Shown here one piece after another: positions 39,951 to 57,054 of a stretch of DNA of 64,000 bases. Position numbers and translations under genes: made by a program. The notes under the pieces were generated by a model. That model made no database searches, was not told the origin of the DNA, and saw nothing but the letters and a program-made list of their open reading frames with translations. Position 1 is the first letter of the stretch, and each line of letters opens with the position of its first letter. This DNA is from a virus, in the IMG/VR virus record IMGVR_UViG_3300020733_000010, positions 114,145-178,144 of that record, one strand, 5' to 3'.

Positions 39951-40586
39951 ATGACATACATAAACATTATTAAAATGTTTCTGTTGTTGCCTATAATTGT
40001 AACAGGTACATATCTGGCGAATGTGTACAACAAAATGCAACAACCGATCCCAAAAGAGCCAGTCAAGGTGGCTAAAGTTGTGGATCAAAAACAATTAAGT
40101 TGTTTAGCGGACAACATCTACTATGAAGCAGGCTCGGAAATAACTGAGGGCAAAGCTGCCGTCGCTCGTGTAGTATTAAACCGTATTAACAACGGAGGAT
40201 TTGGGTCAACACCATGTAAAGTTGTATACCAAATGACACAAGTAAAACAAATCAATACTGATACAGAAGAACCATTTTGGATAAAAGTCTGTCAATTTAG
40301 TTGGGTTTGTGAGGGTAAGGGTAACCCAAACAAACGTGACCCACGTTACCAAAAGAGTTTACAGGTGGCATATGATGTGTTAGCATATGATGCATATAAG
40401 GATATAATTCCACGTAGTGTATTATATTTTCACAACACAAGCATAACACCTGATTGGCCGCATGAAGTTGTGAAGAAAATAGGAAATCACATATTCTATA
40501 GAAAATCGCATAAACATGGACATAACCAAACGCATAAATATAACACGGTCACCACAACGCAATCTTTTCCAGAAGAAAAGGTATAA
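39951..40586 (+). CDS. SleB/CwlJ-family cell wall hydrolase with N-terminal membrane anchor
   Basis: CLADNIYYEAGSE, AVARVVLNR, CQFSW, LYFHN, IGNHIFY motifs; SD aggag. Confidence 0.88.
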   Translation: MTYINIIKMFLLLPIIVTGTYLANVYNKMQQPIPKEPVKVAKVVDQKQLSCLADNIYYEAGSEITEGKAAVARVVLNRINNGGFGSTPCKVVYQMTQVKQINTDTEEPFWIKVCQFSWVCEGKGNPNKRDPRYQKSLQVAYDVLAYDAYKDIIPRSVLYFHNTSITPDWPHEVVKKIGNHIFYRKSHKHGHNQTHKYNTVTTTQSFPEEKV

Positions 40587-41103
40587 GGATAAGTTGCTAT
40601 TAGATCCAAATAATGAAGTTGCAAAAGATATGTTAGAAAATATAGATTTTGAAGAACATCGTAAATTAGATTTGGAAAATGACCCAGAGTGGCGTAAAGA
40701 CAATTTAGAATATGACTTGCGTACCAATGAATATATGGTAAATAAAGTTAGAACTGATATAGTCTATGCCCAACATCTGTATGCTGCATTGTGTAACAAC
40801 GACTATCAAAAGAATGATGTGTGGCCTATACTACAGGATAAACGCTGGAGTTGCAGTTGGCGGTATGCTGGTGGCATACTTGCTAACATGTGCGGTGAGG
40901 GCGATTACATGGATTGGTACTGTAGTGGAATTACCTCGTCTACGGATATAACTGATGAAGAATTTGCCCAAATGACAAAAGAAAGGCAAGAAAGTTACCT
41001 AACAAGTAAACGGTTTGTCAGTGAAGGCGTTATAAGTAGTGAGATACTTGAAGATTTGTTTAATTTGGGTTGGAAGCCCGTAGGAGATAACAATGAGTTT
41101 TAA
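40516..41103 (+). CDS. Hypothetical protein (start uncertain)
   Basis: Acidic ORF with LYAALCNN and WSCSWRYAGG..A...GEGDYMDWYCSG motifs. Confidence 0.6.
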   Translation: MDITKRINITRSPQRNLFQKKRYKDKLLLDPNNEVAKDMLENIDFEEHRKLDLENDPEWRKDNLEYDLRTNEYMVNKVRTDIVYAQHLYAALCNNDYQKNDVWPILQDKRWSCSWRYAGGILANMCGEGDYMDWYCSGITSSTDITDEEFAQMTKERQESYLTSKRFVSEGVISSEILEDLFNLGWKPVGDNNEF

Positions 41104-41386
41104 AAAGATTTTAATTGGTACTACACTATTAATTAGTGTTTCAGCGTTTGCCCAACATGGACATTGGGAACGTCACGGTGGTGGTTGGGGCTGGGTAGCT
41201 CCTGTAGTTATCGGTGGCGCAATCGGCTATGAACTAGCACGTCCTGTAGCACCTGTAGTTATTACTCAGCAACCACCGGTTGTTATTCAACAACCGCAAG
41301 TTGTGCAAACACAAAACTGTAGCCCATGGACTGAAATTCGTAACCCTGACGGTACTGTAACTGTTACCCGTACTTGCACACAGTAA
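41093..41386 (+). CDS. Small secreted/membrane Pro-rich protein (97 aa)
   Basis: Signal-peptide-like N-terminus, GGGWGWVAP, and a C-terminal Cys pair (CSPW...TC). Confidence 0.6.
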   Translation: MSFKKILIGTTLLISVSAFAQHGHWERHGGGWGWVAPVVIGGAIGYELARPVAPVVITQQPPVVIQQPQVVQTQNCSPWTEIRNPDGTVTVTRTCTQ

Positions 41387-41409: not shown

Positions 41410-41416
41410 TTAAATA
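41410..41416 (+). promoter_or_regulatory. T4-type late promoter motif heading the + strand enzyme operon
   Basis: TTAAATA immediately upstream of the FkbM start; the same motif precedes many genes in the window. Confidence 0.55.
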
Positions 41417-41417
41417 G

Positions 41418-42251
41418 TTGATGGCATTTAATATAAACGACTATTTTAACGAAATTAAACCCAACTTGGTTGAAGTAGAGACTAAAGTTGGGAGTATGGC
41501 AGTATATAACCATGACCAAATCATTAGCACAGCATTATTGTTGTATGGTGAATATTGTCATGCAGAAGTAGATATACTCTGTAGATATCTCAATAATAAA
41601 TCCGTTTATTTAGACGTTGGAACTAATATTGGCTATCAGTTACGTGCAGTATACTTTCAATCAAAAGCAAACTGTATTGGATTTGAGCCACACATCACAC
41701 ATTTTACGGTTGCAGCATACAACTGTCAACATTTCCCCATTAAGATTATCAATAGTGCGTTAGGTAACGGTAAGGGTAAAACCATTATCAGCGACTTTGA
41801 CTTAGAAGTAACTAGCAATTATGGGGAAGTTCATATCTGTGACGAGGGTATTGAAGCAAATATATCACGCATAGACGACTTGAAACTAGCGGGGTTAGAC
41901 GCAATTAAGATAGACACTGAGGGTACGGAACTTGATGTACTTAAGGGTGGATTAAGAACTATTAAAAAGTATCGTCCAGTTATATTATTTGAAGCTAACA
42001 CAGATTATACAAAATCCGTAAAGTACTTAGAAAAGCAAAATTATAGTTTTTATTGGGTCAGTTGTAGATATAGCCCAATGAGTGCTAACTTTAAAGGAAA
42101 TATGAATAATCCTTTTGGACGTGCGGGAAGCACAAACATATTAGCAGTACCCGTTGAACGTGAGCAACCTACAGATTTATTGCCCCTAGTTGGTGGTGAG
42201 AATCATAGTGAAACAGTCACACGAATAGAAAATTACAAGTTAGTATTTTAA
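41418..42251 (+). CDS. FkbM-family SAM-dependent methyltransferase
   Basis: YLDVGTNIGY, IGFEP, ALG, IKIDTEG.ELDVLKG, PVILFE motifs. Confidence 0.9.
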   Translation: MMAFNINDYFNEIKPNLVEVETKVGSMAVYNHDQIISTALLLYGEYCHAEVDILCRYLNNKSVYLDVGTNIGYQLRAVYFQSKANCIGFEPHITHFTVAAYNCQHFPIKIINSALGNGKGKTIISDFDLEVTSNYGEVHICDEGIEANISRIDDLKLAGLDAIKIDTEGTELDVLKGGLRTIKKYRPVILFEANTDYTKSVKYLEKQNYSFYWVSCRYSPMSANFKGNMNNPFGRAGSTNILAVPVEREQPTDLLPLVGGENHSETVTRIENYKLVF

Positions 42252-42785
42252 ATGATAATACACAAAATACATGATAATTCCAACAGTCACGTGATGAAAC
42301 TACTAACTGACGAGTTTAGTACAATCACGGATACTGATATCATCAAAAACTATCATCCAGACTATATGAATGAACCCAGCAACATCTTTTATATACTGAA
42401 TGATAGAAATGGAAGATATCACAATGGGGCATATTATGTTATTGAAGAAGATGGATTTGTTGCTAGTGCAGGATATAATGAGTACGACCAAGACACAATA
42501 TTAGCCATAACACGCATGTATGTGTCAGTTAATTATAGGGCTAAGTTTTATATAGGAAAATATGTCTTGCCCACTATACTTGAAGACACAAAACACTATA
42601 GTAAGATTTGGATAACATTCAACGACTATAATCATATATTGTATCAGTATTTTGTAAGAACTAGTCAGGATAAACGAACCGGCTTATATGCACCCTGGCC
42701 TGATATCTATAAACAATTTAAACCCATAGGAAAAAAGACAATAAATCATACTGAGCAGTATGTAGTTGAAAAGAGGAACATATGA
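42252..42785 (+). CDS. GNAT-fold acyltransferase-like protein
   Basis: YYVIEEDGFVASAG...ITRMYVSVNYR motif-A-like segment; fold is inferred by eye. Confidence 0.55.
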   Translation: MIIHKIHDNSNSHVMKLLTDEFSTITDTDIIKNYHPDYMNEPSNIFYILNDRNGRYHNGAYYVIEEDGFVASAGYNEYDQDTILAITRMYVSVNYRAKFYIGKYVLPTILEDTKHYSKIWITFNDYNHILYQYFVRTSQDKRTGLYAPWPDIYKQFKPIGKKTINHTEQYVVEKRNI

Positions 42786-43000
42786 CAGACCAAGAAAAGA
42801 TTGAATTTTTGCAGACAGCAATCAAAGAGTTGTTTAACCGTAGTGTAAACATAAGTCCTGACAACTTATTGATTGACCTAAAACTAGACTCACTAGATAT
42901 TGTCGAGTTACAAGTATATTATGAAGAACAGTCCGGTATTGAGTTATCTGACGATACCAAACTGGTTACCGTTAAAAACTTAATGGATTTGATGAAATGA
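42782..43000 (+). CDS. Acyl carrier protein 1
   Basis: Acidic 72-aa protein with LxLDSLDIVEL phosphopantetheine-serine motif. Confidence 0.9.
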   Translation: MTDQEKIEFLQTAIKELFNRSVNISPDNLLIDLKLDSLDIVELQVYYEEQSGIELSDDTKLVTVKNLMDLMK

Positions 43001-43920
43001 ACTATACGTTCAATAACCACTTAAAATATACGATAGGTGGCAGACTTTATGGAGCAAGAACTAGTCCAACGGAAAAGTTTGAAGTATCTGTGGGTCAAAT
43101 TGATGTTGAACAATATAAAAATAGTACGTTCCGTGACGAGTTATTACGAACCGCAGATTTAGTCTATAAAGACTATGGTAAAGACTTTGCATTGTTTCTA
43201 AGTGGTGGTACTGATTCTGAGATTGTTTTAAGAAACTTTTTAGATATTGGGGTTAAACCACAATGCTATACGATTTGTTTTGAGAATGAATATAACAGAA
43301 CCGATGTTAATGAAGCAATAGACCTAGCTAAGGAATTAGACGTTAAATTAAATATCATTGACTTTAACGTAAAAGACTTTCTATACAGCGGGGAAGCAAG
43401 TGAGTTTGGAAACAAGATACAATGTACACAGATTACATATCTTATGGTCTATCGTTGTATCAAACAGTTGGGTTTGCCCAGTGTCATGGGCGGAGAATTA
43501 TTACTTAAACGAAACATATATACTGAACCGACTACTTGGTACTATTGTTTCCGTGAAAATGAAGATGCTAGTGCAATTAGATTCAGTGAAACATACAATA
43601 TCCCATTGGTCAACGAATGGTTCAGTTATACCCCTGAACTAATGTTGTTCTATTTAGAACAACAAGCTATACACAGTTTGGTCAACGAAAAATACAATTA
43701 TAAATTAACTTCGGTAAGTAGCAAAAATGCTATTTTAAAACAGTTATTACCCGAAATCCGTGTACGTAAAAAGACGCATGGATTTGAAAAGTTATTGGGT
43801 TTTAACTATGAAGCATATAGACAATTATCCAGTGAGCAAATTCCCAGACTTGAGCAAAGTTTAGATGGCATCGAATTCTATACACTATTAGATAGGTTAA
43901 AAGGTAATGAAGGTAATTAA
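42997..43920 (+). CDS. PP-loop ATP pyrophosphatase (asparagine-synthetase-like C-terminal domain)
   Basis: LFLSGGTDSE PP-loop; no N-terminal glutaminase domain. Confidence 0.75.
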   Translation: MNYTFNNHLKYTIGGRLYGARTSPTEKFEVSVGQIDVEQYKNSTFRDELLRTADLVYKDYGKDFALFLSGGTDSEIVLRNFLDIGVKPQCYTICFENEYNRTDVNEAIDLAKELDVKLNIIDFNVKDFLYSGEASEFGNKIQCTQITYLMVYRCIKQLGLPSVMGGELLLKRNIYTEPTTWYYCFRENEDASAIRFSETYNIPLVNEWFSYTPELMLFYLEQQAIHSLVNEKYNYKLTSVSSKNAILKQLLPEIRVRKKTHGFEKLLGFNYEAYRQLSSEQIPRLEQSLDGIEFYTLLDRLKGNEGN

Positions 43921-44503
43921 GTTATCAAGTGAGCACGTAAACACAGTTAGACCATTGTTTGAGGGTCCTAACTTCATGGGCGTGGATAGTACAACCAACT
44001 ATTTTATAGATAGTACAGAGAACTTTGTTGACTTTTACCATGAAGCATTTTGTCACGCATACTTAACCAATTTAACTAACTATCAAAGTTTTGCGGTATT
44101 GGATGACAATGATACAATTGAGTGCTTGATTGCGTTTTATGAGAGTATTGACGATGCCAGCTGGTACTGGACTCAAATACGTAGTAGAGGGAACAAACAT
44201 GCAATTAGATTATGTTTGGACAGTGTAATTGACTATAATGAAAACAACAATAGATTTAAGTTCTATAGCATGTTTCCTAGCAAATATATTGAGTTATACC
44301 GTAGATTAGCATTCAGCGAAACAAACCGTGAACGCTATGATAGTTTTGATGAATATTTGGTTGAGCCAAGAACACAGTGCCCGTTTAGTCTAGCATGGCA
44401 TATATTGTACAATAGAACATTAGTTCCTGTAGAAACAGTAGTTCGCTGCACATACTTAAAAAGACAATATAGAAACACTGTTCCTAACTTGGGGAAACTA
44501 TAA
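43907..44503 (+). CDS. GNAT-like hypothetical protein, paralog A
   Basis: Shares FMG, (I/L)xFYESxDxxxWY, VIxYNExNxRxKFY, RYxxFDExLV and VVRCxxLK motifs with the next gene. Confidence 0.55.
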   Translation: MKVIKLSSEHVNTVRPLFEGPNFMGVDSTTNYFIDSTENFVDFYHEAFCHAYLTNLTNYQSFAVLDDNDTIECLIAFYESIDDASWYWTQIRSRGNKHAIRLCLDSVIDYNENNNRFKFYSMFPSKYIELYRRLAFSETNRERYDSFDEYLVEPRTQCPFSLAWHILYNRTLVPVETVVRCTYLKRQYRNTVPNLGKL

Positions 44504-45072
44504 TGCCGGTGATTAAACTAGACCAATCACACAGAGAGTTATGCAAAGATATATTTAACCATGATAAATTCATGGGTTTGGAAGTGAATGAGCAGGTTAA
44601 TAATGTACTTTATGATAGATTTTGCAATACATATCTATTTGACTTAAAAAACTTCCATTGTTTTGCGAATGTAATTGATGAACAAATCAAAGCACTGATT
44701 ACCTTTTATGAGAGTGTTGACGAACCCGCTTGGTATTATACACTGTACAGAAGCATGGGTGATAACAACTTGTTGCGTGAAGTATTAGATACAGTCATAG
44801 AATATAACGAAAAGAACGGAAGATTGAAGTTTTACACACTTGTGCGTAGTAACCATTCAAAGTTACTTAGAAGATTTCATTGGAGTAAATACAATAATGA
44901 GCGTTATGGATATTTTGATGAGTGTCTAGTTCCTGCAAGACATAAAAGCTATTACAATAATCACTGGGAATTGTTGTTTAAAAATATCTTGTTACCAGAA
45001 GATTCTGTTGTACGTTGTAACTTTCTCAAGCAGGAATATAGAAAAACATTGCCGATAGGTGGGAATTTATGA
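44503..45072 (+). CDS. GNAT-like hypothetical protein, paralog B
   Basis: Tandem paralog of 43907..44503; coupled by TAATG. Confidence 0.55.
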   Translation: MPVIKLDQSHRELCKDIFNHDKFMGLEVNEQVNNVLYDRFCNTYLFDLKNFHCFANVIDEQIKALITFYESVDEPAWYYTLYRSMGDNNLLREVLDTVIEYNEKNGRLKFYTLVRSNHSKLLRRFHWSKYNNERYGYFDECLVPARHKSYYNNHWELLFKNILLPEDSVVRCNFLKQEYRKTLPIGGNL

Positions 45073-45860
45073 ATTTAAAGAGTGTTGCACAAGCGTTTTG
45101 GTTTCAGTTCTTTCCAGCAATATTGCTAGGATCGACAACCATCGTGTTATTGTGCATGGGTATTATTCCAATATACTATTTGTGTTATACATTTATCATG
45201 TGGGTATTGGTATGTGGATTGGGCATTGCTGTAGGATATCATAGGGTATTTGCACATAGAACACATAAACTTCCACAATGGAAAGAAAACATTATATTAT
45301 TCTTTGCGGTGTTTGCAGGTCAAGGTGCAAGCATATTTTGGGTGGCTATGCATAGAGGATATCATCATCCATACAGCGACACAATAAAAGACTATCATAG
45401 TCCAGTTGCATATAACAAATTTACTGCATTTGTGGGCTGGTATTTTAGAATTACTGAAACTGAGAACCTTGTTAACTTAAAGGGTTCTATTGACTTGTTA
45501 CGCAAAAAGAACCATCTATTCTTCCACAACTATTATAAAAGAATACTATGGGGTGTTCCTTTATTAGTTGCATGTATTGACTGGAAGTTTGCATTGACTG
45601 GATTCTGTCTAGTCACTATGATTGGATCACTACAAGATAATCTTGTAAATGTCTATGGGCATTACAAGGGACTATTAGGTTATAGAAACTTTGAAACCAG
45701 AGATAACTCACATAATAACTTTATTCTTGGATATCTAGCATGGGGACAGGGCTGGCACAATAATCACCATTATGCCCCCTCATCATTTGACTTTGGATCA
45801 GGTGTAAGCGGAAAATGGTACGAGTTTGATCCTTGTAGGTTACTAAAACCTTTATTATAA
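45069..45860 (+). CDS. Membrane-bound fatty acid desaturase 1 (delta-9-like)
   Basis: His boxes HRVFAH, HRGYHH and HNNHH; hydrophobic helices; GQGWHNNHH. Confidence 0.9.
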   Translation: MNLKSVAQAFWFQFFPAILLGSTTIVLLCMGIIPIYYLCYTFIMWVLVCGLGIAVGYHRVFAHRTHKLPQWKENIILFFAVFAGQGASIFWVAMHRGYHHPYSDTIKDYHSPVAYNKFTAFVGWYFRITETENLVNLKGSIDLLRKKNHLFFHNYYKRILWGVPLLVACIDWKFALTGFCLVTMIGSLQDNLVNVYGHYKGLLGYRNFETRDNSHNNFILGYLAWGQGWHNNHHYAPSSFDFGSGVSGKWYEFDPCRLLKPLL

Positions 45861-46762
45861 TGGATACATTCTATAACAATTGGTTTGTACATGGGTACAA
45901 CAATGACCCAACGATAACCAAAAGACAAACAAAAACTGATAAGTTCTGTGTTGAGTTTGAACAAAATACCAATGATATTCTACCATTGCGTGAAGCAGTT
46001 AGACATAACAATAACTGTATCAAAGAATGTGCAGGGGATAGTGATATCTATGTGATGCTAAGTGGCGGGTACGACAGCCAATCTATCGCCAAAACAATGG
46101 TCGAAGATAATATAAAATTCACAGCATTAACGTTTGATTTTGGAAGAAACTTAAACGAGTTTGATGTGTCTGAAAGCAAAAGATTATGCGACCAGTATAA
46201 TATCCCACTAAAGATTGTGTCCTTTGACTTAATTGACTATTTCAGTACAGGAGAGTTTAAGCAATATTGCGAAATGACACACTGTAACTATCAATATAAC
46301 TATGTGTACATGCATGGGTTACGTGATATCAATGGGGTAGTTGTTAGTGGGCATGGTGACCAAGAGTTTGAGTTCAATGATAACGGTAAGTATTGGGTAT
46401 TTGAAGAACAACTATTCACTATGTTTGAATATGTAAAACATAGTAAAATGGATAGGTACATACGCTATCATGCATTTACCAAAGAATTGTGGTATAGCAC
46501 GTATGAACTGTATTGGAAACACTTGACTAACAAAAAAGAACACTATACAATAAAGACTAGATTATACAATGATTTAGGATTAACTGAGCGTGTTAAATAT
46601 ACAGGGTTCGAGCCGTATGTAACAGATATCCTTGACCCATATAAACAGTTAAGACATTCGGTGCATAGGTATTTGATAAATCGTTTTCCTAGCTCACAGA
46701 ATGATATTGAAAACTTACTTGCTGAAAAAGCAACAGGTGACTTATTTTTAGTAAAATGTTAA
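45860..46762 (+). CDS. PP-loop ATP pyrophosphatase, second paralog
   Basis: VMLSGGYDSQ PP-loop; ending KYTGFE mirrors KTHGFE of 42997..43920. Confidence 0.72.
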   Translation: MDTFYNNWFVHGYNNDPTITKRQTKTDKFCVEFEQNTNDILPLREAVRHNNNCIKECAGDSDIYVMLSGGYDSQSIAKTMVEDNIKFTALTFDFGRNLNEFDVSESKRLCDQYNIPLKIVSFDLIDYFSTGEFKQYCEMTHCNYQYNYVYMHGLRDINGVVVSGHGDQEFEFNDNGKYWVFEEQLFTMFEYVKHSKMDRYIRYHAFTKELWYSTYELYWKHLTNKKEHYTIKTRLYNDLGLTERVKYTGFEPYVTDILDPYKQLRHSVHRYLINRFPSSQNDIENLLAEKATGDLFLVKC

Positions 46763-47535
46763 ATCACATTCCAAAATACGTTTGTTTCAGTTTTGTGCCA
46801 TTTGTGATGGCGAGTTTAGTTACGGTTGTTTTATACTGCATTGGTGTCATACCCACATACTATCTAATCTATACACTGATTGGATGGATATTGATACCCG
46901 GTCTAGGATTAGCAGTGGGCTATCATAGAATGTTTTCACATCAAAACTATCAGAATATTCCATTATGGAAAGAAAACATTATATTGTTTCTTGGAACATT
47001 GTCAGGACAGGGTTCAAGTATCACATACTCAGCACTACATCGTGGATATCATCATCCATACAGTGACACAGAGAAAGATATACATAGCCCAATACATGGT
47101 AAATACAATAGCTTTATAGGATGGGCTACAAAACTAACTGAATCAAATCCCGTCATCAAGTTAAAGTTTGCGGGCAGACTATTGAGTAAAAGTAACCATG
47201 TTTGGTTTCACAAACATCACTTAAAAATAATGTATATTGTTCCATTAACAGTTGCATTGTTTGACTGGAAACTAAGTCTAGCACTATTATGCTTACCTGC
47301 AGGTATTGCTATGCTACAAGATAACACGGTCAATGTATTCTGTCATATAAAGACATTTATGGGATATAAAAACTTTGAAACAAAAGACAATTCAGAGAAC
47401 AATTTTATTCTAGGTTATTTGGGCTGGGGACAGGGCTGGCACAATAATCATCATCACGATCCTAAAATGTTTAGTTTTAGAGTAACGTGGTATGAGTTTG
47501 ATCCCTGTGTTATTTTTATACCATTACTAAAATGA
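46756..47535 (+). CDS. Membrane-bound fatty acid desaturase 2
   Basis: His boxes HRMFSH, HRGYHH and HNNHH; close paralog of 45069..45860. Confidence 0.9.
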   Translation: MLNHIPKYVCFSFVPFVMASLVTVVLYCIGVIPTYYLIYTLIGWILIPGLGLAVGYHRMFSHQNYQNIPLWKENIILFLGTLSGQGSSITYSALHRGYHHPYSDTEKDIHSPIHGKYNSFIGWATKLTESNPVIKLKFAGRLLSKSNHVWFHKHHLKIMYIVPLTVALFDWKLSLALLCLPAGIAMLQDNTVNVFCHIKTFMGYKNFETKDNSENNFILGYLGWGQGWHNNHHHDPKMFSFRVTWYEFDPCVIFIPLLK

Positions 47536-47891
47536 TAGTTGGAATCGGAACAGACATTACAAACAGTGATAGGTTTCAAGTTGACGGGAAACCTAAAGAT
47601 AAACTTGCACTAAAGATAATGACCTTTAGAGAGCATGTTATATATTGTACATTACCTGATAACTTAAAGATAATTTATCTTGCAAAGATTTGGTCTATTA
47701 AAGAAGCAGCAAGCAAAGCATATGGTACGGGTATTGGTAAGTTATTGTACTGGACAGATATTGAAGCATCCAAAGACCAATTGGGTAAACCTACATTAAG
47801 ACTAATAAACTATCCCAAGATAAATGCACATGTTTCTACATCGGATGAAAAGAACATGGTTGTTTCTATGGTGTTATTAGAGACTGACTGA
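47532..47891 (+). CDS. acpS: Holo-ACP synthase (4'-phosphopantetheinyl transferase)
   Basis: IVGIGTDI, WSIKEAASKAYGTGIG, DQLGKP and HVSTSDE motifs; 119 aa. Confidence 0.92.
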   Translation: MIVGIGTDITNSDRFQVDGKPKDKLALKIMTFREHVIYCTLPDNLKIIYLAKIWSIKEAASKAYGTGIGKLLYWTDIEASKDQLGKPTLRLINYPKINAHVSTSDEKNMVVSMVLLETD

Positions 47892-48476
47892 CTAGTGTGT
47901 TTAAATAAACAATCAACATAACTGATATCGTTGTTTGTAAATACCAATTCAATTTTGATTCGTGTCGTTTCGACATTTTCTACACTGTGAAAAACTCTTG
48001 GGTTCCAGTAGTACCAGTTATCGGGTTCTAATATCTGACACTACTGGTTTCACTTTGTTATAGCGAATAATATCACTATATTCTTTGTCGTTGTTTTTCT
48101 TATCGTATAACACAGTTTCTACGTTTGAGCCACCGGTATCAATCACATAGCTAAATGCAACCTTTCTATCCTGATCTGTGTGTACGGGGAAACACGCAAC
48201 ACTATCTCTATAGTTTGTAACACATAACACCAGACTCATTAGTTCTCTACCTATGATAGGTTGTATATGTTGATTAACATAATCTGACAATATATCATCA
48301 TGTGGGATTCTTATTCTGTCAACATAGTTATAATCACTGTGATATCTTTTACAAATTATTCTAAACTTATCATCAAACTCACCGGCAGAAACTAAATTCC
48401 TGACATGGTTTTTAACATCGTCAGTAAGTTTAGGTAGATTCAGTGTATAGAAGTTATAATCAATATCCGAATTCAT
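47810..48476 (-). pseudogene. 2OG-Fe(II) oxygenase split by a frameshift
   Basis: ORF 48476->48018 has HTD and stops; the adjacent frame continues ILEPDNWYYWNPRVFHSVENVETTRIKIEL, supplying the distal His and Arg, and ends at 47810. Confidence 0.75.
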
Positions 48477-49326
48477 TTTCTTTTACATGTTCAAAAAAGG
48501 GAGCAATTTTAAAGTCTGGTGTAACTCTACCCCTTCTCATGCTACCTGGATCAGGGATATCACTATCTTCGGGTGACCAGTCAGTTACTTTGATCCAAAT
48601 CTTTGAGTCAGGAACTTGGAATAGTATGTTATGATCTTCCTCATATCCATCAATTACATTGTTTTCTTTTGCTTTTACTGGATCGACTCCCGCAGTAGTT
48701 GCAACTAGATTAATCAAATCATCGTATGAATAGTTTTCATCTTTTTCTAATGAATATCTACCCAATTGACCTACGTTTCTAAAACGTATCACAATCTTGG
48801 TATCAAGTTCTTTTGCCATTTGAATCAGTCTACCCACAGCAAGTTCATTGACACCCTTCATAATCAAACAATTGATATTAACAAACATATTCATTTCGGC
48901 ACAAAGTTTCAGTGCCTTTACTTTACGTTTGGCACACATTAAATTGTCTGTTTTTAAGTATAGACTATCTAAGTCTGCACCATTCATGCTGAGAGATAAA
49001 ACTCGTAACCCACTATCAATCAACTTTTTCACATAGTCTTTGTTTGCTAGTTTCAATCCATTAGTGTTTAGCATAGGTCTATGACCCAAACTACGAATCA
49101 TTTTAATGATTTGTGGTAAGTCTTTTCTAACTGTAGGCTCTGCACCAATAATACGAATCTCAGTACGCTTTTTAAATTTACTAATGCATTCTTCAAGTTT
49201 AATAATGTCCATGTCAGGTATATCACGATTAGGGATATAACAGTTGACACATTCCATATTACAGCGATGTGTAACATCAACTGCAACATACGTAAACTCA
49301 TGTTCTTCGGGTTCGTAATATTTCAT
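48460..49326 (-). CDS. Radical SAM protein (MoaA-like core)
   Basis: CNMECVNC (CxxxCxxC), IIGAEPT, LNTNG; no C-terminal Cys cluster visible. Confidence 0.9.
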   Translation of the reverse strand: MKYYEPEEHEFTYVAVDVTHRCNMECVNCYIPNRDIPDMDIIKLEECISKFKKRTEIRIIGAEPTVRKDLPQIIKMIRSLGHRPMLNTNGLKLANKDYVKKLIDSGLRVLSLSMNGADLDSLYLKTDNLMCAKRKVKALKLCAEMNMFVNINCLIMKGVNELAVGRLIQMAKELDTKIVIRFRNVGQLGRYSLEKDENYSYDDLINLVATTAGVDPVKAKENNVIDGYEEDHNILFQVPDSKIWIKVTDWSPEDSDIPDPGSMRRGRVTPDFKIAPFFEHVKENEFGY

Positions 49327-50105
49327 ATCTTAGCTTGGTTGATTAAGTCAATCAAATCATCTTGACTTGTATAGTGTTCGTATACTGATAAGTTTACACT
49401 TAGCGTTAAACGATCCTCTGATCCTTGATTAGTAACTGCATGATTGCGCCCAGTATCAAACCAATAGAAGTTGCCATCTGCTGGAATTTGAAATTTCTCG
49501 CCCTCAATTTGAAACCAAACATCATCATTAGAATATATTGCAGCATGTACTCTAATTTGTTGATAGTATGGAAAGTCAACATGTGCAGGAACAACTCCCC
49601 TAGGTCTTAAATTAAGTAGTCTGCATTTTGTAGTTGTTGTATGGAACTTGTTAATAACCTCAGCAATGTAACCTCTGTATGCTTTAGTTGGAGTGTTAAA
49701 CAGTTTTTCATTCAGTACAGGAAGTTTATCTGGACCTTCAGTACCCTCACCAAAATAAGTTTTGAATGTGTCTCTGATATGTATTTCGTTTGTGTTAGAT
49801 GGTGCATCTTCATAAGCAAACAATCTCATACCATCATACTCTGGATTCTCAATGTTTGGTCTAGATGTTAAACACAATCCTTCATATGTTAAACGTTTGC
49901 GACCATCAGGTGTTAACACAAATGGTTTAAAGGGAAAATCTTCTTTGAGTAATTCAACTTCTTGTCTAAGTTTCTCTAAATCAAAACTATAATAGTCGGG
50001 TAACTTACACATTTTGATACGTGGTCTTTCCCATTCTGTTTTTGGGCTATACCAGTTTTGTTCGTATCTTGTTTCTTGTGTAGTGTCAATATCTATGTTA
50101 ATCAT
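49323..50105 (-). CDS. Aspartyl/asparaginyl beta-hydroxylase-family 2OG-Fe(II) oxygenase
   Basis: RLLNLRPRGVVPAHVD, RVHAAI, FDTGRNHAVTN..RL motifs. Confidence 0.8.
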   Translation of the reverse strand: MINIDIDTTQETRYEQNWYSPKTEWERPRIKMCKLPDYYSFDLEKLRQEVELLKEDFPFKPFVLTPDGRKRLTYEGLCLTSRPNIENPEYDGMRLFAYEDAPSNTNEIHIRDTFKTYFGEGTEGPDKLPVLNEKLFNTPTKAYRGYIAEVINKFHTTTTKCRLLNLRPRGVVPAHVDFPYYQQIRVHAAIYSNDDVWFQIEGEKFQIPADGNFYWFDTGRNHAVTNQGSEDRLTLSVNLSVYEHYTSQDDLIDLINQAKI

Positions 50106-50845
50106 TTCTGCCTCTGTATCATTCTAATAAAATACCATCCCCAATCAAACTCGTTTTTGAATATTGATAGTTTTGCCATATTGGGAAACTTATGATGGTT
50201 GTTATGTAATCCTTCTCCTGCACTTAGTAATGCAACGATGGTGTTGTTTGTACTTTTGTCCTTTGTCTCAAAGTTTCTATAGCCATATTTATGACATATT
50301 GAATCTACCATGCCTGTGCTATGAAACAAAAACATACTAGGTATACTATAGAACAACATACCTACTAACGGGTCAATAGAATAAAGTACAATAATGTATA
50401 GTAATAAAAACTTTATATAGTGTTTGTGAATAGTTTTGATTGTGTTGTTCTTTGTAAGGTCTGAAACAACTGAACCACTGATCTTAAGATTATTCCAATT
50501 ATGAATGTAACTGTTAAAGAACCCTATGGCATGTGGACTTTGATGGTCATTGACTTCATCAGAAGTTGCATGATGTATTCTATGTGCAGCTACCCAAGTA
50601 ATAGGTGTTCCAACAGTAGCAGGTACACTTATGAATAGCATAACCTTTTCCCAGAACGGTGTTGTGTTATATGATTTGTGAGTGAAGTATCTATGTAATC
50701 CTGCTGAAACACCTATGCCACCATAGACGTTGTACATGATAAACGGAATCAACATATACCAATATGAGTATTGTGAAAATAAAAACCAAACTAAGACGCA
50801 ATGATTGAAGATGTGAATCACATTCAATTGCGTTTTAAGATTCAT
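50102..50845 (-). CDS. Membrane-bound fatty acid desaturase 3 (delta-9-like)
   Basis: His boxes HRYFTH, HRIHH and GEGLHNNHH. Confidence 0.92.
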   Translation of the reverse strand: MNLKTQLNVIHIFNHCVLVWFLFSQYSYWYMLIPFIMYNVYGGIGVSAGLHRYFTHKSYNTTPFWEKVMLFISVPATVGTPITWVAAHRIHHATSDEVNDHQSPHAIGFFNSYIHNWNNLKISGSVVSDLTKNNTIKTIHKHYIKFLLLYIIVLYSIDPLVGMLFYSIPSMFLFHSTGMVDSICHKYGYRNFETKDKSTNNTIVALLSAGEGLHNNHHKFPNMAKLSIFKNEFDWGWYFIRMIQRQK

Positions 50846-50848
50846 AGT

Positions 50849-51085
50849 TTACTTGTTGTTGATTTTGTTGGCAACGTATTCATATAGTTTTGCAAACGTA
50901 GTCAACTGATTCTCGTCTTCTTCTTCGATTTTGATATTAAAATGGTCGTTGACTTCCATCATAATTTCAATGGTATCTAAGCTATCAATGCCTGCAGCTT
51001 TCCAATTTTTTGCGTTACGAATTACTTCAGGCGAAGTTGCGCTGAGTTTACAAATTAAGTCTAGTAACTCTTTTTCCAAATCCAT
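50849..51085 (-). CDS. Acyl carrier protein 2
   Basis: Acidic 78-aa protein with AGIDSLDTIEI motif; SD aagga. Confidence 0.9.
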   Translation of the reverse strand: MDLEKELLDLICKLSATSPEVIRNAKNWKAAGIDSLDTIEIMMEVNDHFNIKIEEEDENQLTTFAKLYEYVANKINNK

Positions 51086-51139
51086 GTTATGTTCCTTACG
51101 ATATACTAGTATATATCATGTTAAGGACTGTTGGTAAAA

Positions 51140-51511
51140 TTAGCTAATAGTTATTTCAAGAGAAACGTTTTTTGTGTCAACTGATGAGTTGAAGTCAGTT
51201 CCAAAAATAGTCATCAAATCATTTTTGTATTCATCGTAAGCACTACTAGAACTAAACACACCTACCCAATCATAACAAGTTTCAGATACTTGTTTCATTT
51301 CATTGACAAGGATGTTTCCAGACAAGTGATGCGGAACCTTCATTGTTTTTAGTGTTTCTAAATAGTCTTTTGGTTGTACTTTTGGATCTTTCAATATACC
51401 GTCACTAATCAACAAACTATAGAATGAATTGATGAAATCCAACATGTCCCCGCTAATGATGTATTTTGAGTCTTTGATTGTAAATTTTTTGTTAATAGTT
51501 ACTTTTTCCAT
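51140..51511 (-). CDS. Hypothetical protein (123 aa)
   Basis: SD aggag and its own ATAAATA motif (51527-51533, minus strand). Confidence 0.6.
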   Translation of the reverse strand: MEKVTINKKFTIKDSKYIISGDMLDFINSFYSLLISDGILKDPKVQPKDYLETLKTMKVPHHLSGNILVNEMKQVSETCYDWVGVFSSSSAYDEYKNDLMTIFGTDFNSSVDTKNVSLEITIS

Positions 51512-51532
51512 GATGATCTCCTAATGTATTTA

Positions 51533-52123
51533 TCAAAATTTTCTCCTAGAATTCAATGCAGTAGCACTGCGAATGAACACAGGATTGTTTTGCCATGTTT
51601 CCCCTATTCTTAGTTTTAACATGTTGTTGAATGCATCAAAGTCAGATAATTCATTTGGCATTATTTTAGCTTCGGTCACATATACGTACTCTTGTAGTTT
51701 GGGTATGTACTTTTGAAAAATCGTCATAGCACGTTCACTGTTGTACTGACGTTCAGAGACAATGGTATAGAATTTGTAGTAGCCTCTACTCTCTGCATAG
51801 TCAATCAACAATTCCGTTGCACTGGCTACCCCGTTTTCTCTTAAGTTTAGATTTACTGTGCGTTTGTTTGTGATTAGACTAGACAGAAACCAGTTTGGAA
51901 CACCCTTCCAGAATGTTCCTGTCACCGACGCAATCATCTTATCATCTTCCCATGTACCCGTAATACATACTAATGGGTTGGAAATCATTCGTTCAATTTG
52001 TTCTGGATCAGTCCATACATCAAATTTTTCATTGGGCTGATGTTTGTTCTGGGACAATTTTGCCTCACTATACATAGCAATTATGCTTGGTATATCATCT
52101 ATTGTACATACTTTAGTTAACAT
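51533..52123 (-). CDS. GNAT-like hypothetical protein, paralog C
   Basis: CITGTWEDDKMIASV, WFLSSL, LIDYAESRGYYKFYT and YVYVTE..I match the 43907/44503 pattern; CTAAATA at 52128-52134 (minus strand). Confidence 0.55.
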   Translation of the reverse strand: MLTKVCTIDDIPSIIAMYSEAKLSQNKHQPNEKFDVWTDPEQIERMISNPLVCITGTWEDDKMIASVTGTFWKGVPNWFLSSLITNKRTVNLNLRENGVASATELLIDYAESRGYYKFYTIVSERQYNSERAMTIFQKYIPKLQEYVYVTEAKIMPNELSDFDAFNNMLKLRIGETWQNNPVFIRSATALNSRRKF

Positions 52124-52168
52124 GTTTTATTTAGTTTCATGGTTTATACAACACAAAAAACATAACTG

Positions 52169-54102: not shown

Positions 54103-54178
54103 ATCCTGTTAGTTTATCGGTTAAGAACAGTGGCCTTTCAAGTCGCAGAGACGGGTTCGATTCCCGTACAGGATGCCA
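54103..54178 (+). tRNA. tRNA-Glu(TTC)
   Basis: gtggc-ctTTCaa-gtcgc arm, CCA. Confidence 0.9.
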
Positions 54179-54725
54179 TTTCATTTTGAAAAATCTTTTT
54201 TGCTTTTTCAAATGTGATAAAAGATGTTGTGCTAATCTCTTTTACAAACACAGAGATACACAACCTATCACTGGTTATATTAGATATGTCATGCGGTAAG
54301 CCCACTTGAACTATACTAGGAAAGCCAACACGCTGACTATGTATAAGTTCAACATCATCACGTTTGTAATATTCGTATGTGATGCCTATCGCACTTGTGT
54401 TGGTTTGTATGTTATCAACTTTGGGTTGATACCAATTCATCACACTATCACCGCCTCCGTATACCCAGTTGATTTTTGTTGCGTCAGTCAATCCTGGTGC
54501 ATCTTTGTGAATGTTTGGGACAGCAATGTCCTCGGGCATTCTATAAAAACTTTCTGCAAGAGTAATTTGTAAGTTTTTGTTTTTAAAGAAATCAATGATT
54601 TTTGTATTGATAGTACTAGGATCAATTTTGTTATGTCGTTTATACTTTGACCTCAGTGAGTTCAAATAAACTTCATCCTCAATAAAAGGTATAGAGATAT
54701 TTAGGTCAATACAAAAGTCATTCAT
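54138..54725 (-). CDS. 2OG-Fe(II) oxygenase-like protein
   Basis: IHKD, INWVYGG, VQVGLPHDISN..RLCISV; 3' end runs antisense into tRNA-Glu. Confidence 0.7.
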   Translation of the reverse strand: MNDFCIDLNISIPFIEDEVYLNSLRSKYKRHNKIDPSTINTKIIDFFKNKNLQITLAESFYRMPEDIAVPNIHKDAPGLTDATKINWVYGGGDSVMNWYQPKVDNIQTNTSAIGITYEYYKRDDVELIHSQRVGFPSIVQVGLPHDISNITSDRLCISVFVKEISTTSFITFEKAKKIFQNEMASCTGIEPVSAT

Positions 54726-54752: not shown

Positions 54753-55331
54753 ATGTTAGTAAAAACTTTATGTGAAGTTCCTATTGAACTTTTCAACAAT
54801 TCATTAATTGAAGTCAATAATATTGATTGGTCAAGTGTTGTTGATCCTTCACGCAAAGCAAGTGATGTGTTTTCAACAAGCACTGCGATTCACATGCGAG
54901 TTCATAAAGTTACAGATGACACACCAAAAACACTACGTGGATATTGTTCAGTAGTAGAGTGTGTTGATTCTTTACCTAACTCATTGCTATATCCAGAAGC
55001 ATACAAACTTGCAAACTGGATTTACAAACATGTTAATGGGTTACGTTTAGGTAGAATCATGTTAGTTAGGCTTGAAGCAGGTGGTTCTGTAGGATTACAC
55101 ATTGATCCATTTGAGTACTTTAAAGTATACTCACGATATCATGTACCCATCATTACAAATAGTAATGTACTATTCAGCGGCGGTGATGATTCAGAAAAAG
55201 AACACATGCCTGTAGGAATGTTAAGCAGACTTAACAATCGCAAGCCTCACATGCTAGTTAACGGTGGTTCAGATTTTAGAGTTCATTTGATTGTTGACGT
55301 TGAAACTGAAGGTGGAAACATCATATTTTAA
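54753..55331 (+). CDS. Aspartyl/asparaginyl beta-hydroxylase-family oxygenase
   Basis: GRIMLVRLEAGGSVGLHID, RYHVPIITN, LNNRKPHMLVN..RVHLIVD. Confidence 0.85.
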   Translation: MLVKTLCEVPIELFNNSLIEVNNIDWSSVVDPSRKASDVFSTSTAIHMRVHKVTDDTPKTLRGYCSVVECVDSLPNSLLYPEAYKLANWIYKHVNGLRLGRIMLVRLEAGGSVGLHIDPFEYFKVYSRYHVPIITNSNVLFSGGDDSEKEHMPVGMLSRLNNRKPHMLVNGGSDFRVHLIVDVETEGGNIIF

Positions 55332-56178
55332 TGTGGTCAATGTTCATCCTATAGAATTTACGTTCATTATCAGATACATCACTACCTAGAACTAGTTTTG
55401 TTCTACCATGAATAAAACTGTAGTTGTCATAGATTGCAATATCATACGTATCCCAAACATGTTTGTGATATAGTTCAGGATGTTCCAGTAACTCATCTAT
55501 GTATGTTTGTATCAAAGAACAATCAAGTTGTTTGATGTTATCAATATACACTTCCTTAATCCACGCATTCAAGTGTCCGTGTCTAACATAATAGTTAAGA
55601 CGCAATGACTTGTTGCCTGTAACAGGGTGTATCTTAATAAAATCATGCAGTTGTTCGTCAGTACCCATACTGTACCAACTTTGTTGTAATATAGTAACTC
55701 GGCTAATCAATTCTTTGAGTTTAGGTGAAAGGTACTCAATACCATCTTCAATGTTCAGCCAATATGTATTGCCTGATTCAACATTGTTGGGGTTCTTAAC
55801 GATCCATAATGCACGATGAGGGAATGGATTTTCTTTACGATTTGGTATATCAGCATGCCAAGCCATTACATCATTGCTAATGATCTTGGTTGAATGTATC
55901 TTGTTACTGAATTCAGTTATGTGATATGTCTTGTCGTTTTCTGATAGAGTAATACTACGTTCATTGCTATAGATGTAATCTTGTTGATTCCAAGGCTTGC
56001 CAAAACTGTGTCCAAACTTTGCATAGTCTAGTTCAGTAAAATTCATCTTTTTAAAAACAAGAAGTTTTCTTTGATAAATCAATTGTCTCCAGTAGTCAGT
56101 TGACTCATTAAAGAAATCTAATGGGTTATCAAATTCAACGATTGTTCCCCAAGATTTATGTATGGGTGTTAATCTCAT
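55321..56178 (-). CDS. TauD/TfdA-family dioxygenase
   Basis: WHAD, HPVTG..SL and DNYSFIHGR motifs; start moved to ATG 56178 (MRLTPIHKSWG), preceded by ATAAATA at 56184-56190, because the longer ORF start lies inside tRNA-Gly. Confidence 0.85.
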   Translation of the reverse strand: MRLTPIHKSWGTIVEFDNPLDFFNESTDYWRQLIYQRKLLVFKKMNFTELDYAKFGHSFGKPWNQQDYIYSNERSITLSENDKTYHITEFSNKIHSTKIISNDVMAWHADIPNRKENPFPHRALWIVKNPNNVESGNTYWLNIEDGIEYLSPKLKELISRVTILQQSWYSMGTDEQLHDFIKIHPVTGNKSLRLNYYVRHGHLNAWIKEVYIDNIKQLDCSLIQTYIDELLEHPELYHKHVWDTYDIAIYDNYSFIHGRTKLVLGSDVSDNERKFYRMNIDHIKI

Positions 56179-56192
56179 ACTGATATTTATAT

Positions 56193-56266
56193 GCGTGGTT
56201 AGTTTAACGGTAAAATCAAACATTGCCAATGTTTAGTCAAGGGTTCGACTCCCTTACCCCGCACCA
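56193..56266 (+). tRNA. tRNA-Gly(GCC)
   Basis: aaaca-ttGCCaa-tgttt arm, CCA. Confidence 0.88.
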
Positions 56267-56505: not shown

Positions 56506-57054
56506 ATGTTTCAAAAACTCAATGTGGATATCAACGTAGGTAACTTTTCTCATGGCAACAAAATTACTGAATATTCGTATACTGTATTAAATGACAAATC
56601 AGTACCGCTTATTCAGTATCATGTTGCGTTAGGAGAATGCCGCGAAAAAATGTTACAACTTCTTCCGGAGAGATTCCGTTCTGCATTCGTTATTAACATA
56701 ATGAATATAGCAGGTATAGTTGTACCACACACTGATAGTAACATTAGGTGTACTATCAATCACTATGTCCAAACGAATGATGAGGAAACTATTTTCTTTG
56801 CATTCAAAGAAAATGCTGAGGGTTTTCAAATAACAAATCAAACGAATGGTAGGTTATTTAAACTTGATGAAGTGAATCGTGTTGATTCTTTTATAGCAAA
56901 AGCCGGAGAAACATGGATACTAGATGTTACCAAACCTCACGGTGTTAAGGGTCAAATGCCTATTAAAGATTATCGTGTTGCGATAGTTATGAATACTAAT
57001 ACCTATTCGTATCAAGAGGTATTAGAAATGTTGAAAGAAACAAATTCAATTTAA
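56506..57054 (+). CDS. 2OG-Fe(II) oxygenase-like protein
   Basis: VVPHTD, INHY, WILDVTKPHGV..RVAIV; TATAAATA at 56493-56500. Confidence 0.7.
   Translation: MFQKLNVDINVGNFSHGNKITEYSYTVLNDKSVPLIQYHVALGECREKMLQLLPERFRSAFVINIMNIAGIVVPHTDSNIRCTINHYVQTNDEETIFFAFKENAEGFQITNQTNGRLFKLDEVNRVDSFIAKAGETWILDVTKPHGVKGQMPIKDYRVAIVMNTNTYSYQEVLEMLKETNSI

Follow-up and report, generated by a model that had tools for sequence, protein, structure and literature searches.

What would a phage make with two acyl carrier proteins (ACPs), an AcpS-type 4'-phosphopantetheinyl transferase (PPTase), three membrane desaturases, several GNAT-type proteins and two PP-loop synthetases? The question is raised by a gene cluster at positions 41418-52123 of a 64,000-nucleotide stretch of DNA (the window), which forms the last 64 kb of the 178-kb IMG/VR virus record IMGVR_UViG_3300020733_000010. 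The source of the cluster is a giant phage, since the record is 178 kb long and is rated 51% complete by CheckV. A total of 17 open reading frames (ORFs) are arranged in two convergent blocks (g01-g10 on the plus strand, g11-g17 on the minus strand; table 1), and together they represent a real, conserved and virus-restricted enzyme cluster. It is tentatively proposed, with somewhat less than even confidence, that a carrier-protein-dependent phage pathway produces an unsaturated, probably hydroxylated and methylated, amide-linked acyl compound (a lipoamino acid or lipoamide) during infection. Phage auxiliary genes are usually single host-boosting enzymes, whereas here a multi-enzyme cluster is found.

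Conservation and Viral Restriction of the Core Genes

The cluster was compared with a set of 66 related phage loci, some of them near-duplicates, that were annotated with profiles from the window genes. A gene of the g04 family of PP-loop synthetases (PP) is followed directly by a gene of the g05 family of GNAT-fold proteins (G5) on the same strand in 60 out of 66 loci, and in 32 of these the two genes overlap by 4 nt. A desaturase gene (DES) abuts this PP-G5 pair in 51 loci, coming immediately after G5 in 42 and immediately before PP in 9, and the g02-type gene (G2) is present in 43 loci. The most common core order is G2, ACP, PP, G5, DES. This five-gene core, or its PP-GNAT-desaturase part, is conserved in dozens of phage loci, and the genes form one real, conserved unit. 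An earlier reading of the window (the first-pass annotation) had set co-occurrence of the genes in related phages as a test of its proposal, and the adjacency of PP and G5 agrees with it. Many of the related loci also lie at the same genomic place as the present cluster, after ribonucleotide reductase, an endolysin-like gene, and a gene for a 190-aa protein.

Two key families of the core are almost wholly viral. An exhaustive search recovered 621 representative clusters of the g04 family, and the closest ESM Atlas clusters of g04, whether judged by sequence features or by structure, are 93-100% viral. The g05 family consists of 92 clusters at 90% identity, all of them metagenomic, and its only occurrence among 185,579 species genomes is a single 4-kb contig of a metagenome-assembled genome. 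No homologue of either g04 or g05 was found in GenBank phages, and a DNA-level search of GenBank phages gave no match. Judged by these searches, the PP-loop and GNAT families appear virus-restricted, that is, almost entirely viral.

The gene content around the core varies greatly among the relatives. In other loci the core is surrounded by several AspH-like cupins, a TauD-family dioxygenase, radical S-adenosylmethionine (SAM) and radical SAM-SPASM enzymes, ATP-grasp-like proteins, TctC, and epimerases. Special to the present genome are the phage AcpS, a second module, with a GNAT, an ACP, and a desaturase of the accessory type, on the opposite strand, and a partly duplicated core, in which g04-g05-g06-g07 are followed by g08-g09 and both desaturases are, by sequence, of the core type. 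One relative (L014) shares with this genome the AcpS, the second PP gene, a minus-strand ACP and a g17-type GNAT.

Organization of the Cluster

The first-pass annotation proved largely reliable with respect to gene organization: every one of its 17 ORFs was found at the coordinates it had given, the phage origin that it assigned to the locus agrees with the virus record, nearly all of its family calls were verified by hidden Markov model (HMM) or by fold, and each half of the cluster does carry its own ACP, desaturase and GNAT. Translational coupling throughout the plus operon, also claimed there, is shown by the intergenic gaps, which are 0, -4, -4, -14, -1, -4, -1, -7, and -4 nt and thus range from 0 to -14 nt (stop/start overlaps). 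The gaps in the minus block are 21, 54, 3, -4, -4, and -17 nt. The end of the cluster at 52123 had to be abandoned, as the island extends further to the right among tRNA genes (see below).

Table 1. Genes of the cluster and island genes downstream of it, with coordinates in the window
Gene	Coordinates	Strand	Assignment	Evidence
g01	41418-42251	+	FkbM-family methyltransferase	PF05050 E 9e-11; TIGR01444 57.9 bits (cut-off 37.7)
g02 (G2)	42252-42785	+	Probable GNAT acyltransferase, first gene of conserved core	Weak Acetyltransf_1
g03	42782-43000	+	ACP1	PF00550 24.8 bits (cut-off 20.8); D36-S37-L38
g04	42997-43920	+	Stand-alone AsnB/beta-lactam-synthetase-like PP-loop synthetase, 307 aa	AlphaFold2 fold; SGGxDSE
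g05 (G5)	43907-44503	+	GNAT-fold acyltransferase, virus-restricted family	AlphaFold2 fold
g06	44503-45072	+	g05 paralogue, GNAT fold by homology	39% identity over full length, E 3e-48
g07	45069-45860	+	SCD/DesA-type membrane desaturase, core type	PF00487 E 2e-12; alignment to mouse SCD1
g08	45860-46762	+	Second PP-loop synthetase, 300 aa	Family profile E 5e-51; 27% identity to g04
g09	46756-47535	+	Second core-type desaturase	PF00487 E 2e-10; 53% identity to g07
g10	47532-47891	+	AcpS-type PPTase	PF01648 E 2e-15; TIGR00516 78.5 bits (cut-off 59.8)
g11	47810-48476	-	Small cupin/2-oxoglutarate-type oxygenase, frameshifted	Called ORF 48018-48476; remainder in +1 frame
g12	48460-49326	-	Radical SAM enzyme, CxxxCxxC, without auxiliary-cluster domain	PF04055 E 2e-15
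g13	49323-50105	-	AspH-type Fe/2-oxoglutarate beta-hydroxylase	PF05118 E 1.4e-8
g14	50102-50845	-	Accessory-type SCD/DesA-family desaturase	PF00487 E 2e-13; NF049918 110 bits
g15	50849-51085	-	ACP2	PF00550 37.7 bits (cut-off 20.8); DSLD motif
g16	51140-51511	-	123-aa protein of unknown function	No match
g17	51533-52123	-	Distant g05-family GNAT, first gene of minus operon	Profile matches to g05/g06
Island-family ORFs among tRNA genes	54138-54725; 56506-57054; 57656-58195	-; +; +		Homologues of c51, c48, c37
AspH	54753-55331	+	AspH-type hydroxylase	PF05118 E 3e-8
TauD	55321-56229	-	TauD-family dioxygenase	PF02668 E 2e-18
Third AspH	60469-60972	-	AspH-type cupin within tRNA array	PF05118 E 6e-6

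PP-Loop Synthetases and GNAT-Type Proteins

At the sequence level, the PP-loop proteins resemble QueC, NAD synthetase and MnmA only in the SGGxDSE N-terminus, and the N-terminus of g08 gives QueC, ATP_bind_3 and Asn_synthase matches in Pfam. Predicted structures were made for g04 and g05. The AlphaFold2 model of g04 was built from an alignment of 69 sequences, in which S69, G70, G71, D73, S74, and E75 are invariant or nearly so, and has a predicted local distance difference test (pLDDT) score of 96.6. Its best structural match is human ASNS (VIA Z 15.2, root-mean-square deviation (rmsd) 3.7 Å, 250 aligned residues), and beta-lactam synthetase (14.9) and Escherichia coli AsnB (14.7) score nearly as high. 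The synthetase domains of ASNS, AsnB, beta-lactam synthetase and carbapenam synthetase align over 235-258 residues with Z 12.9-15.2, compared with Z of approximately 10 for LarE and NAD synthetase and approximately 9 for TtuA and TilS/MesJ. A glutaminase (GATase) domain was not matched by Pfam in either g04 or g08.

The GNAT assignments differ in strength. The Acetyltransf_1 score of g02 (16.8 bits) lies under the cut-off of 20.7, and among 32 orthologues 11 have a weak Acetyltransf_1 match and 10 an Acetyltransf_7 match; g02 is probably a GNAT on this basis. The g05 model (pLDDT 84.8) is a compact GNAT (best VIA Z 15.2, rmsd 2.5 Å, 151 residues) and matches GNAT acetyltransferases with a Foldseek probability of 1.0 and VIA Z 12.5-15.2. 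Between strand 4 and helix 3, at the pyrophosphate-binding position, the g05 family carries a loop R92-x-x-G95-x-N97, whose last position is Asn in contrast to the Gly/Ala of the GNAT consensus Q/R-x-x-G-x-G/A. Profile matches connect g17 to g05 (E 2e-14) and to g06 (E 1e-16), and none of g05, g06, and g17 has a match in Pfam. A profile-profile comparison detected no relationship between the g02 and g05 families, and profile searches of solved structures with the two families returned nothing useful. A search for fused or longer forms of the g05 family found none, which is weak evidence.

A role of g05 as a LuxI-type acyl-homoserine lactone synthase or a FeeM-type N-acyl amino acid synthase was rejected, as there is no HMM match and neither type is among the top 50 structural neighbors. 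Neither PF13444 (OlsB/NAS) nor PF00765 (LuxI) gave a match, the LuxI control matching no genome either, and a single 11-bit match to PF02794 (HlyC) lies elsewhere in the genome.

Carrier Proteins, Their Transferase and the Desaturases

Both ACPs retain the serine of the D-S-L motif, which is invariant across an alignment of 20 phage homologues. Their scores against TIGR00517, the equivalog of housekeeping AcpP, are 30.4 and 43.8 bits, and because these are far under the cut-off of 70.45 the two proteins are classified, on their sequences, as divergent, dedicated carriers and not as housekeeping AcpP. The suggestion of the first-pass annotation that one PPTase could load both ACPs fits the presence of the phage AcpS (g10), which could prime the two. 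The phage thus brings its own AcpS together with two ACPs, and this is the strongest evidence in the family for phosphopantetheine-dependent chemistry. AcpS is rare elsewhere: among the relatives it occurs in 1 out of 66 loci (L014), AcpS-like sequences were found in only eight GenBank phage records, unannotated and mostly small fragments, and a scan with the AcpS protein returned just two viral relatives, both weak. In two unrelated IMG/VR contigs an AcpS-like gene is followed by an ACP gene (L077:8001-8863 and L078:2026-2868), so phage PPTase/ACP pairs are not unique to this clade. A complex prediction for g04 and ACP1 gave a score of 0.01 (mark 0.32), which says nothing either way.

All three desaturases score above the PF00487 cut-off (E 2e-10 to 2e-13) and they are the sole cluster proteins with hydrophobic segments. 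In the alignment of g07 to mouse SCD1 (4YMK) the HRxxxH, HRxHH, N..H, and HNNHH motifs are all in place, giving the full set of metal ligands, and HRxxxH, HRxHH and HNNHH are likewise present in g09 and g14. Core desaturases from other loci share 55-62% identity with g07, and g14 is 33% identical to g07 and to g09. Against NF049918, the DesA equivalog (385 positions, cut-off 400), the three score 64, 46, and 110 bits, with approximately positions 4-232 covered. To our knowledge, the SCD/DesA-type family acts on acyl chains only. The nearest deposited phage desaturases, those of Pelagibacter phage Mosig and Acinetobacter phage MD-2021a, are stand-alone genes with 28% identity, and a single-protein pattern scan with g14 found nothing.

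On a related 319-kb phage contig (L004:8331-20506), the core precedes six paralogous desaturase genes and a ketosynthase gene (PF00109/PF02801). With up to six desaturases in a row, once together with a ketosynthase, a dedicated polyunsaturated chain is suggested rather than an adjustment of membrane fluidity. Upstream of the core, the same contig carries genes for a carbamoyltransferase and GTP cyclohydrolase I.

Candidate Tailoring Enzymes

The methyltransferase gene g01 probably starts at the ATG at position 41421. The radical SAM enzyme g12 has as its best solved relative the tetraether lipid synthase GDGT-MAS (7TOL, E 1e-20); for MoaA the value is E 2e-13. Against the Tes family model NF045702, g12 reaches 82 bits (cut-off 450) and only the core (residues 13-197) matches; a Cys-rich C-terminal region is absent from g12. 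The hydroxylase g13 contains no hydrophobic segment and scores only 11.8 bits against the LpxO model NF033391 (cut-off 500). Its best solved relative is Cpz10 (7V4F, E 4e-6), a small-molecule aminoacyl beta-hydroxylase of the caprazamycin liponucleoside pathway (PMC9814697). The best solved relatives of g12 and g13 point weakly to lipid or aminoacyl substrates.

The first-pass annotation had listed g11 as a 2-oxoglutarate oxygenase. The gene is read here as a small cupin/2-oxoglutarate-type oxygenase that is not intact: g11 has no HMM match, and the ORF as called keeps the H-x-D motif and lacks the distal His. The missing C-terminal strand (pattern W..N...FHSV.N...R) lies in the +1 frame between 48040 and 47810, with the break near 48020-48043. 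When g11 is read through, with an X at the break, 126 aa align to an intact 162-aa homologue (L017:18302-18790, minus strand) with E 8e-8, compared with E 1e-3 for the called ORF alone. On account of the strand in the +1 frame and of the improved read-through alignment, g11 is interpreted from its sequence as a frameshifted small cupin, with either a pseudogene or an error of assembly as the cause. In the +1 frame, the C-terminal part of g11 runs over the last approximately 80 nt of the convergent AcpS gene. Nothing in Pfam, NCBIfam or PHROGs matches g16, and no homologue of it was found in the 66 related loci; a PHROGs search of the cluster proteins as a whole gave almost no matches.

Proposed Pathway

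In the pathway proposed here, AcpS would convert apo-ACP1 and apo-ACP2 to their holo forms, an acyl chain from the host pool would be carried as a thioester, and the SCD-type di-iron desaturases would add double bonds at the inner membrane. The GNAT-fold proteins g02, g05, g06, and g17 would transfer the acyl group from the thioester to an amine, and the AsnB-like g04 and g08 would form another amide bond by way of an adenylated carboxylate or, alternatively, activate an acid for loading. The AspH and TauD oxygenases, the radical SAM enzyme, and the FkbM methyltransferase would decorate the product. The families and folds of the enzymes, the operon structure and the conservation of the PP-GNAT-desaturase core are shown by the data; the order of the steps, desaturation of the thioester-bound chain, the origin of this chain and the kind of acceptor are inferred. 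An Asp/Asn-like amino acid or head group may serve as acceptor, which is only a guess prompted by the archetypes of the AsnB and AspH families, both of which act on Asp or Asn. An amphiphilic siderophore was also considered as the product and dropped, its basis being the TctC, TauD, and AspH genes of relatives only.

Several observations weigh against this proposal. First, an ACP was detected in just 29 out of 66 related loci and is truly missing from the operon in some of them; in L005, for example, G2 overlaps PP with no ACP between them. The core enzymes are therefore not strictly dependent on a phage ACP. Second, three distant loci carry parts of the gene set with neither desaturase nor ACP within 6-8 kb: in L079 (8001-10410) a GNAT-PP fusion protein is encoded two genes upstream of an AspH-like gene, in L083 (4594-8246) a GNAT-PP-GNAT sandwich, both GNATs of which are clear in Pfam, lies just downstream of an AspH-like gene, and in L082 a PP gene and an AspH-like gene are 1 kb apart. 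Since these sets lack a desaturase, the ancestral substrate need not be a lipid. Third, the nearest structural neighbors of g05 are N-acetyltransferases that use acetyl-CoA (RimI, Naa, EctA, SpeG), and no known acyl-ACP-dependent GNAT relative is among its top 50 structural neighbors. Fourth, none of the enzymes known to load acyl groups onto an ACP (ANL ligase, acyltransferase, ketosynthase) was found. LarE forms a thioester via an adenylated carboxylate, and by analogy it is conceivable on chemical grounds that a PP-loop enzyme forms the thioester for acyl loading of the ACP.

The distant loci bear on the age and the center of the pathway. Because they hold the GNAT/AsnB-like/AspH set without desaturase or ACP, that set is older and more widespread than the desaturases and ACPs, which the giant-phage clade added to it. 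For the same reason the pathway is better described as centered on amide synthetases than on ACPs. The ACP-centered pathway of the first-pass annotation has to be revised accordingly, as the constant core in the relatives is the AsnB-like synthetase with a GNAT (and a desaturase), not the ACP. The GNAT domain of the fused protein P0216 shows no detectable relation to g02 or g05.

A bolder version of the proposal, which is regarded as doubtful, holds that the cluster represents a virus-owned, natural-product-like pathway without cellular counterpart. Its core would be the virus-restricted triad of GNAT, AsnB-like synthetase and GNAT, to which giant phages would have recruited ACPs, a PPTase and desaturase arrays; the PP-loop synthetase would replace an ANL ligase and the product, a polyunsaturated lipoamide or a lipid-modified protein, would be made in infected cells only.

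Identification of the product could reveal the role of a virus-made lipid or lipoamide in infection (membrane function, signaling, exclusion of other phages, or virion modification), would give a function to the AsnB-like synthetase family with its 621 representative clusters and might uncover a carboxylate-activating route that does not depend on ANL enzymes.

Alternative Explanations

An explanation that makes use of the structural neighbors of g05 is the modification of a protein or a ribosomal peptide, whether of the virion, of the host, or similar to the ribosomally synthesized and post-translationally modified peptides. The GNATs would acylate an N-terminus or Lys, possibly with an unsaturated acyl group borne by an ACP, the AsnB-like enzymes would amidate or cross-link Asp/Glu as lasso cyclases do, and the AspH and TauD enzymes would hydroxylate residues. 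The protein N-terminal acetyltransferases RimI (Z 14.1), Ard1 (13.9), and Naa60, NatA, and NatC (12.5-12.9) are among the top neighbors of g05, but these scores tie with those of small-molecule acetyltransferases. AspH is named after the hydroxylation of Asp/Asn in proteins, related islands contain radical SAM-SPASM and ATP-grasp-like genes, which belong to families typical of peptide maturation, and the GNAT/AsnB-like/AspH set of distant phages does without desaturases. However, no conserved small precursor gene is found in or next to the core and the operon has no spare room for one, and, unless a lipidation is involved, the desaturases, ACPs, and AcpS would have to be accounted for separately. 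Overall, protein modification is a serious alternative, although it is considered unlikely.

The remodeling of host envelope lipids (phospholipids, aminolipids, or lipid A) is similarly improbable. Here the chains would be desaturated in situ by DesA-type enzymes, hydroxylated in the manner of LpxO/OlsC and combined with GNAT-type N-acylation of head groups, either for membrane upkeep or for a change of the cell surface during infection. It is consistent with the desaturases, which score best against the DesA family, with the membership of LpxO and OlsC in the AspH family and with the solved relative of g12 that works on membrane lipid tails. Editing of lipids in place needs neither dedicated ACPs nor a PPTase, however; g13 falls far short of the LpxO cut-off and has no membrane segment, PF13444 of the OlsB/NAS type is not matched, and up to six desaturases exceed the needs of fluidity.

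It is very unlikely that there is no single pathway and that the region is a hypervariable island of independent auxiliary genes, such as stand-alone desaturases and arrays of oxygenases. The wide differences in gene content around the core, the tRNA genes and HNH endonuclease interleaved in this window and the stand-alone desaturases of the Pelagibacter and Acinetobacter phages would fit such an island, but accretion is contradicted by the synteny of PP, G5, and the desaturase, by the existence of fused GNAT-PP proteins, and by the stop/start codon overlaps all along the plus operon.

Finally, modification of nucleic acids or tRNA, with the PP-loop, GNAT, and radical SAM enzymes acting on a base as in TilS, QueC, and TmcA-type systems, could draw on the N-terminal similarity of the PP-loop proteins to QueC, TilS, and MnmA, on the adjoining array of 28 tRNA genes and on the GTP cyclohydrolase I gene upstream of the core in a single relative (L004), but it is the least probable explanation of all, as the whole fold of g04 is that of AsnB/beta-lactam synthetase (Z 15, with TtuA and TilS/MesJ at approximately 9) and no role of membrane desaturases, ACPs, and AcpS in such modification is known.

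Comparison with Known Systems

The first-pass annotation had likened the cluster to the JamABC and polyyne pathways. The terminal-alkyne cassette JamA/JamB/JamC and the polyyne clusters (cay/pgn) contain a dedicated ACP beside one or more SCD-type desaturases, together with an ANL ligase, and a thioesterase releases the polyyne acid. The phage cluster resembles them in the dedicated small ACP next to SCD-type desaturases and in the several desaturase paralogues per operon. In the 178-kb record, which is approximately 51% complete, there was no AMP-binding match (PF00501, E <= 0.01; the control matched in 12 out of 14 genomes), no match to thioesterase PF00975 at E <= 0.1, and no ketosynthase-family protein anywhere. 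The absence of a ketosynthase, fatty acyl-AMP ligase (FAAL), and thioesterase that had been noted for the window thus extends to the whole record. Without ANL ligase, ketosynthase and thioesterase the cluster is not a JamABC/polyyne cassette; two of the defining parts of such a cassette (ANL ligase and thioesterase) are missing and nothing points to alkyne formation, for which no sequence hallmark is known to us, so that the analogy fails in its specific form. In the place of ligase and thioesterase, the phage cluster has AsnB-like synthetases and several GNATs, and it is virus-restricted.

The mycobactin mbt-2 cluster consists of the GNAT MbtK, the ACP MbtL, the ligase MbtM, and the acyl-ACP dehydrogenase MbtN. 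The logic is alike, in that a chain on a dedicated ACP is desaturated and then passed by a GNAT to an amine, yielding an unsaturated lipid tail in amide linkage. The phage cluster differs in having di-iron membrane desaturases in place of a flavin dehydrogenase and in the lack of a FAAL, and the kinship is at the superfamily level only. By analogy, the cluster would work most like the thiotemplated acyl-tailoring cassettes (JamABC, polyyne, and mbt-2), and it belongs to none of them, since it has neither the ligase nor the thioesterase and contains AsnB-like synthetases and GNATs in their stead.

The comparison with individual enzyme classes leads to similar combinations of likeness and difference. 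With the AsnB, beta-lactam synthetase, carbapenam synthetase, and TsnB9 class, g04 and g08 share the SGGxDS PP-loop and, for the g04 model, the fold of the whole synthetase domain (Z 11-15.2, 235-258 residues), and probably also the adenylation of a carboxylate followed by amide formation. Unlike this class, they lack the N-terminal Ntn glutaminase and are stand-alone proteins of approximately 300 aa with 12-15% identity, and the members of their family are nearly all viral. Ornithine-lipid synthesis by OlsB, OlsC/LpxO, and OlsE likewise combines an N-acyltransferase that uses thioesters, an AspH-family hydroxylase and a membrane di-iron enzyme, whereas the phage cluster has no PF13444 protein, a soluble g13 far under the LpxO cut-off and desaturases of the SCD type rather than FA_hydroxylase. 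Cyanophages and pelagiphages carry stand-alone PF00487 desaturases; in contrast, those described here (28% identity) are part of a conserved operon that also contains AsnB-like, GNAT and ACP genes. No description of this module was found in the literature.

Genomic Surroundings of the Cluster

Among the neighbors of the cluster are genes for ribonucleotide reductase and an endolysin-like protein as well as very large ORFs. Just upstream of the core lies a gene for a Cys-rich 195-aa protein of unknown function (40516-41103, plus strand) that is conserved at this position in 20 related loci and is often preceded there by a DUF2452 gene and an endolysin-like gene. It is followed, directly upstream of the cluster, by a 97-aa ORF (41093-41386, plus strand) with a signal-peptide-like N-terminus, a middle part rich in Gly, Pro, Val, and Gln and two C-terminal Cys, of which no homologue was found in any of the related loci.

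To the right of the cluster, 28 tRNA genes are arranged in several blocks between 53095 and 63913, interleaved with AspH, TauD, and island-family ORFs and with an HNH endonuclease gene (59929-60489) whose product is 81% identical to one in L014. The AspH/TauD pair at 54753-56229 is parted from the cluster by the first block of the tRNA array. The two genes are orthologues (47% and 54% identity) of the AspH_a and TauD genes that lie beside PP-G5 in approximately 27 related loci, and the pair is probably a continuation of the island. The families c51, c48, and c37, to which the ORFs among the tRNA genes are homologous, sit inside the islands of related loci. Given the position of the pair, the third AspH and the three island-family ORFs, the island reaches to approximately 61 kb.

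Sigma-70 promoter-like and terminator-like sites in the cluster were not above the shuffled expectation. There is no enrichment of the full T4 late box TATAAATA (4 found, 8.75 expected), whereas the shorter TAAATA alone is enriched: genome-wide, it occurs within 40 nt upstream of 46 out of 167 ORFs, with an expectation, calculated from its overall frequency in the genome, of 0.016 occurrences per ORF. As the first-pass annotation had noticed, TAAATA heads both operons, at 41410-41415 (10 nt before the g01 ATG) and at 52128-52133 (10 nt before the g17 ATG), and it is also found 21 nt before the ATG of g16. The motif precedes large structural-looking ORFs and auxiliary genes and not the ribonucleotide reductase genes. 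The first-pass annotation had taken the motif to favor a late product such as virion lipidation, but TAAATA is common in this genome ahead of genes of many kinds and so lends no support to late timing or to lipidation of the virion. Its occurrences peak at -10/-11 (19 occurrences), and in many genes it ends 4-5 nt before the ATG, which points to a phage-specific promoter whose transcripts have little or no leader.

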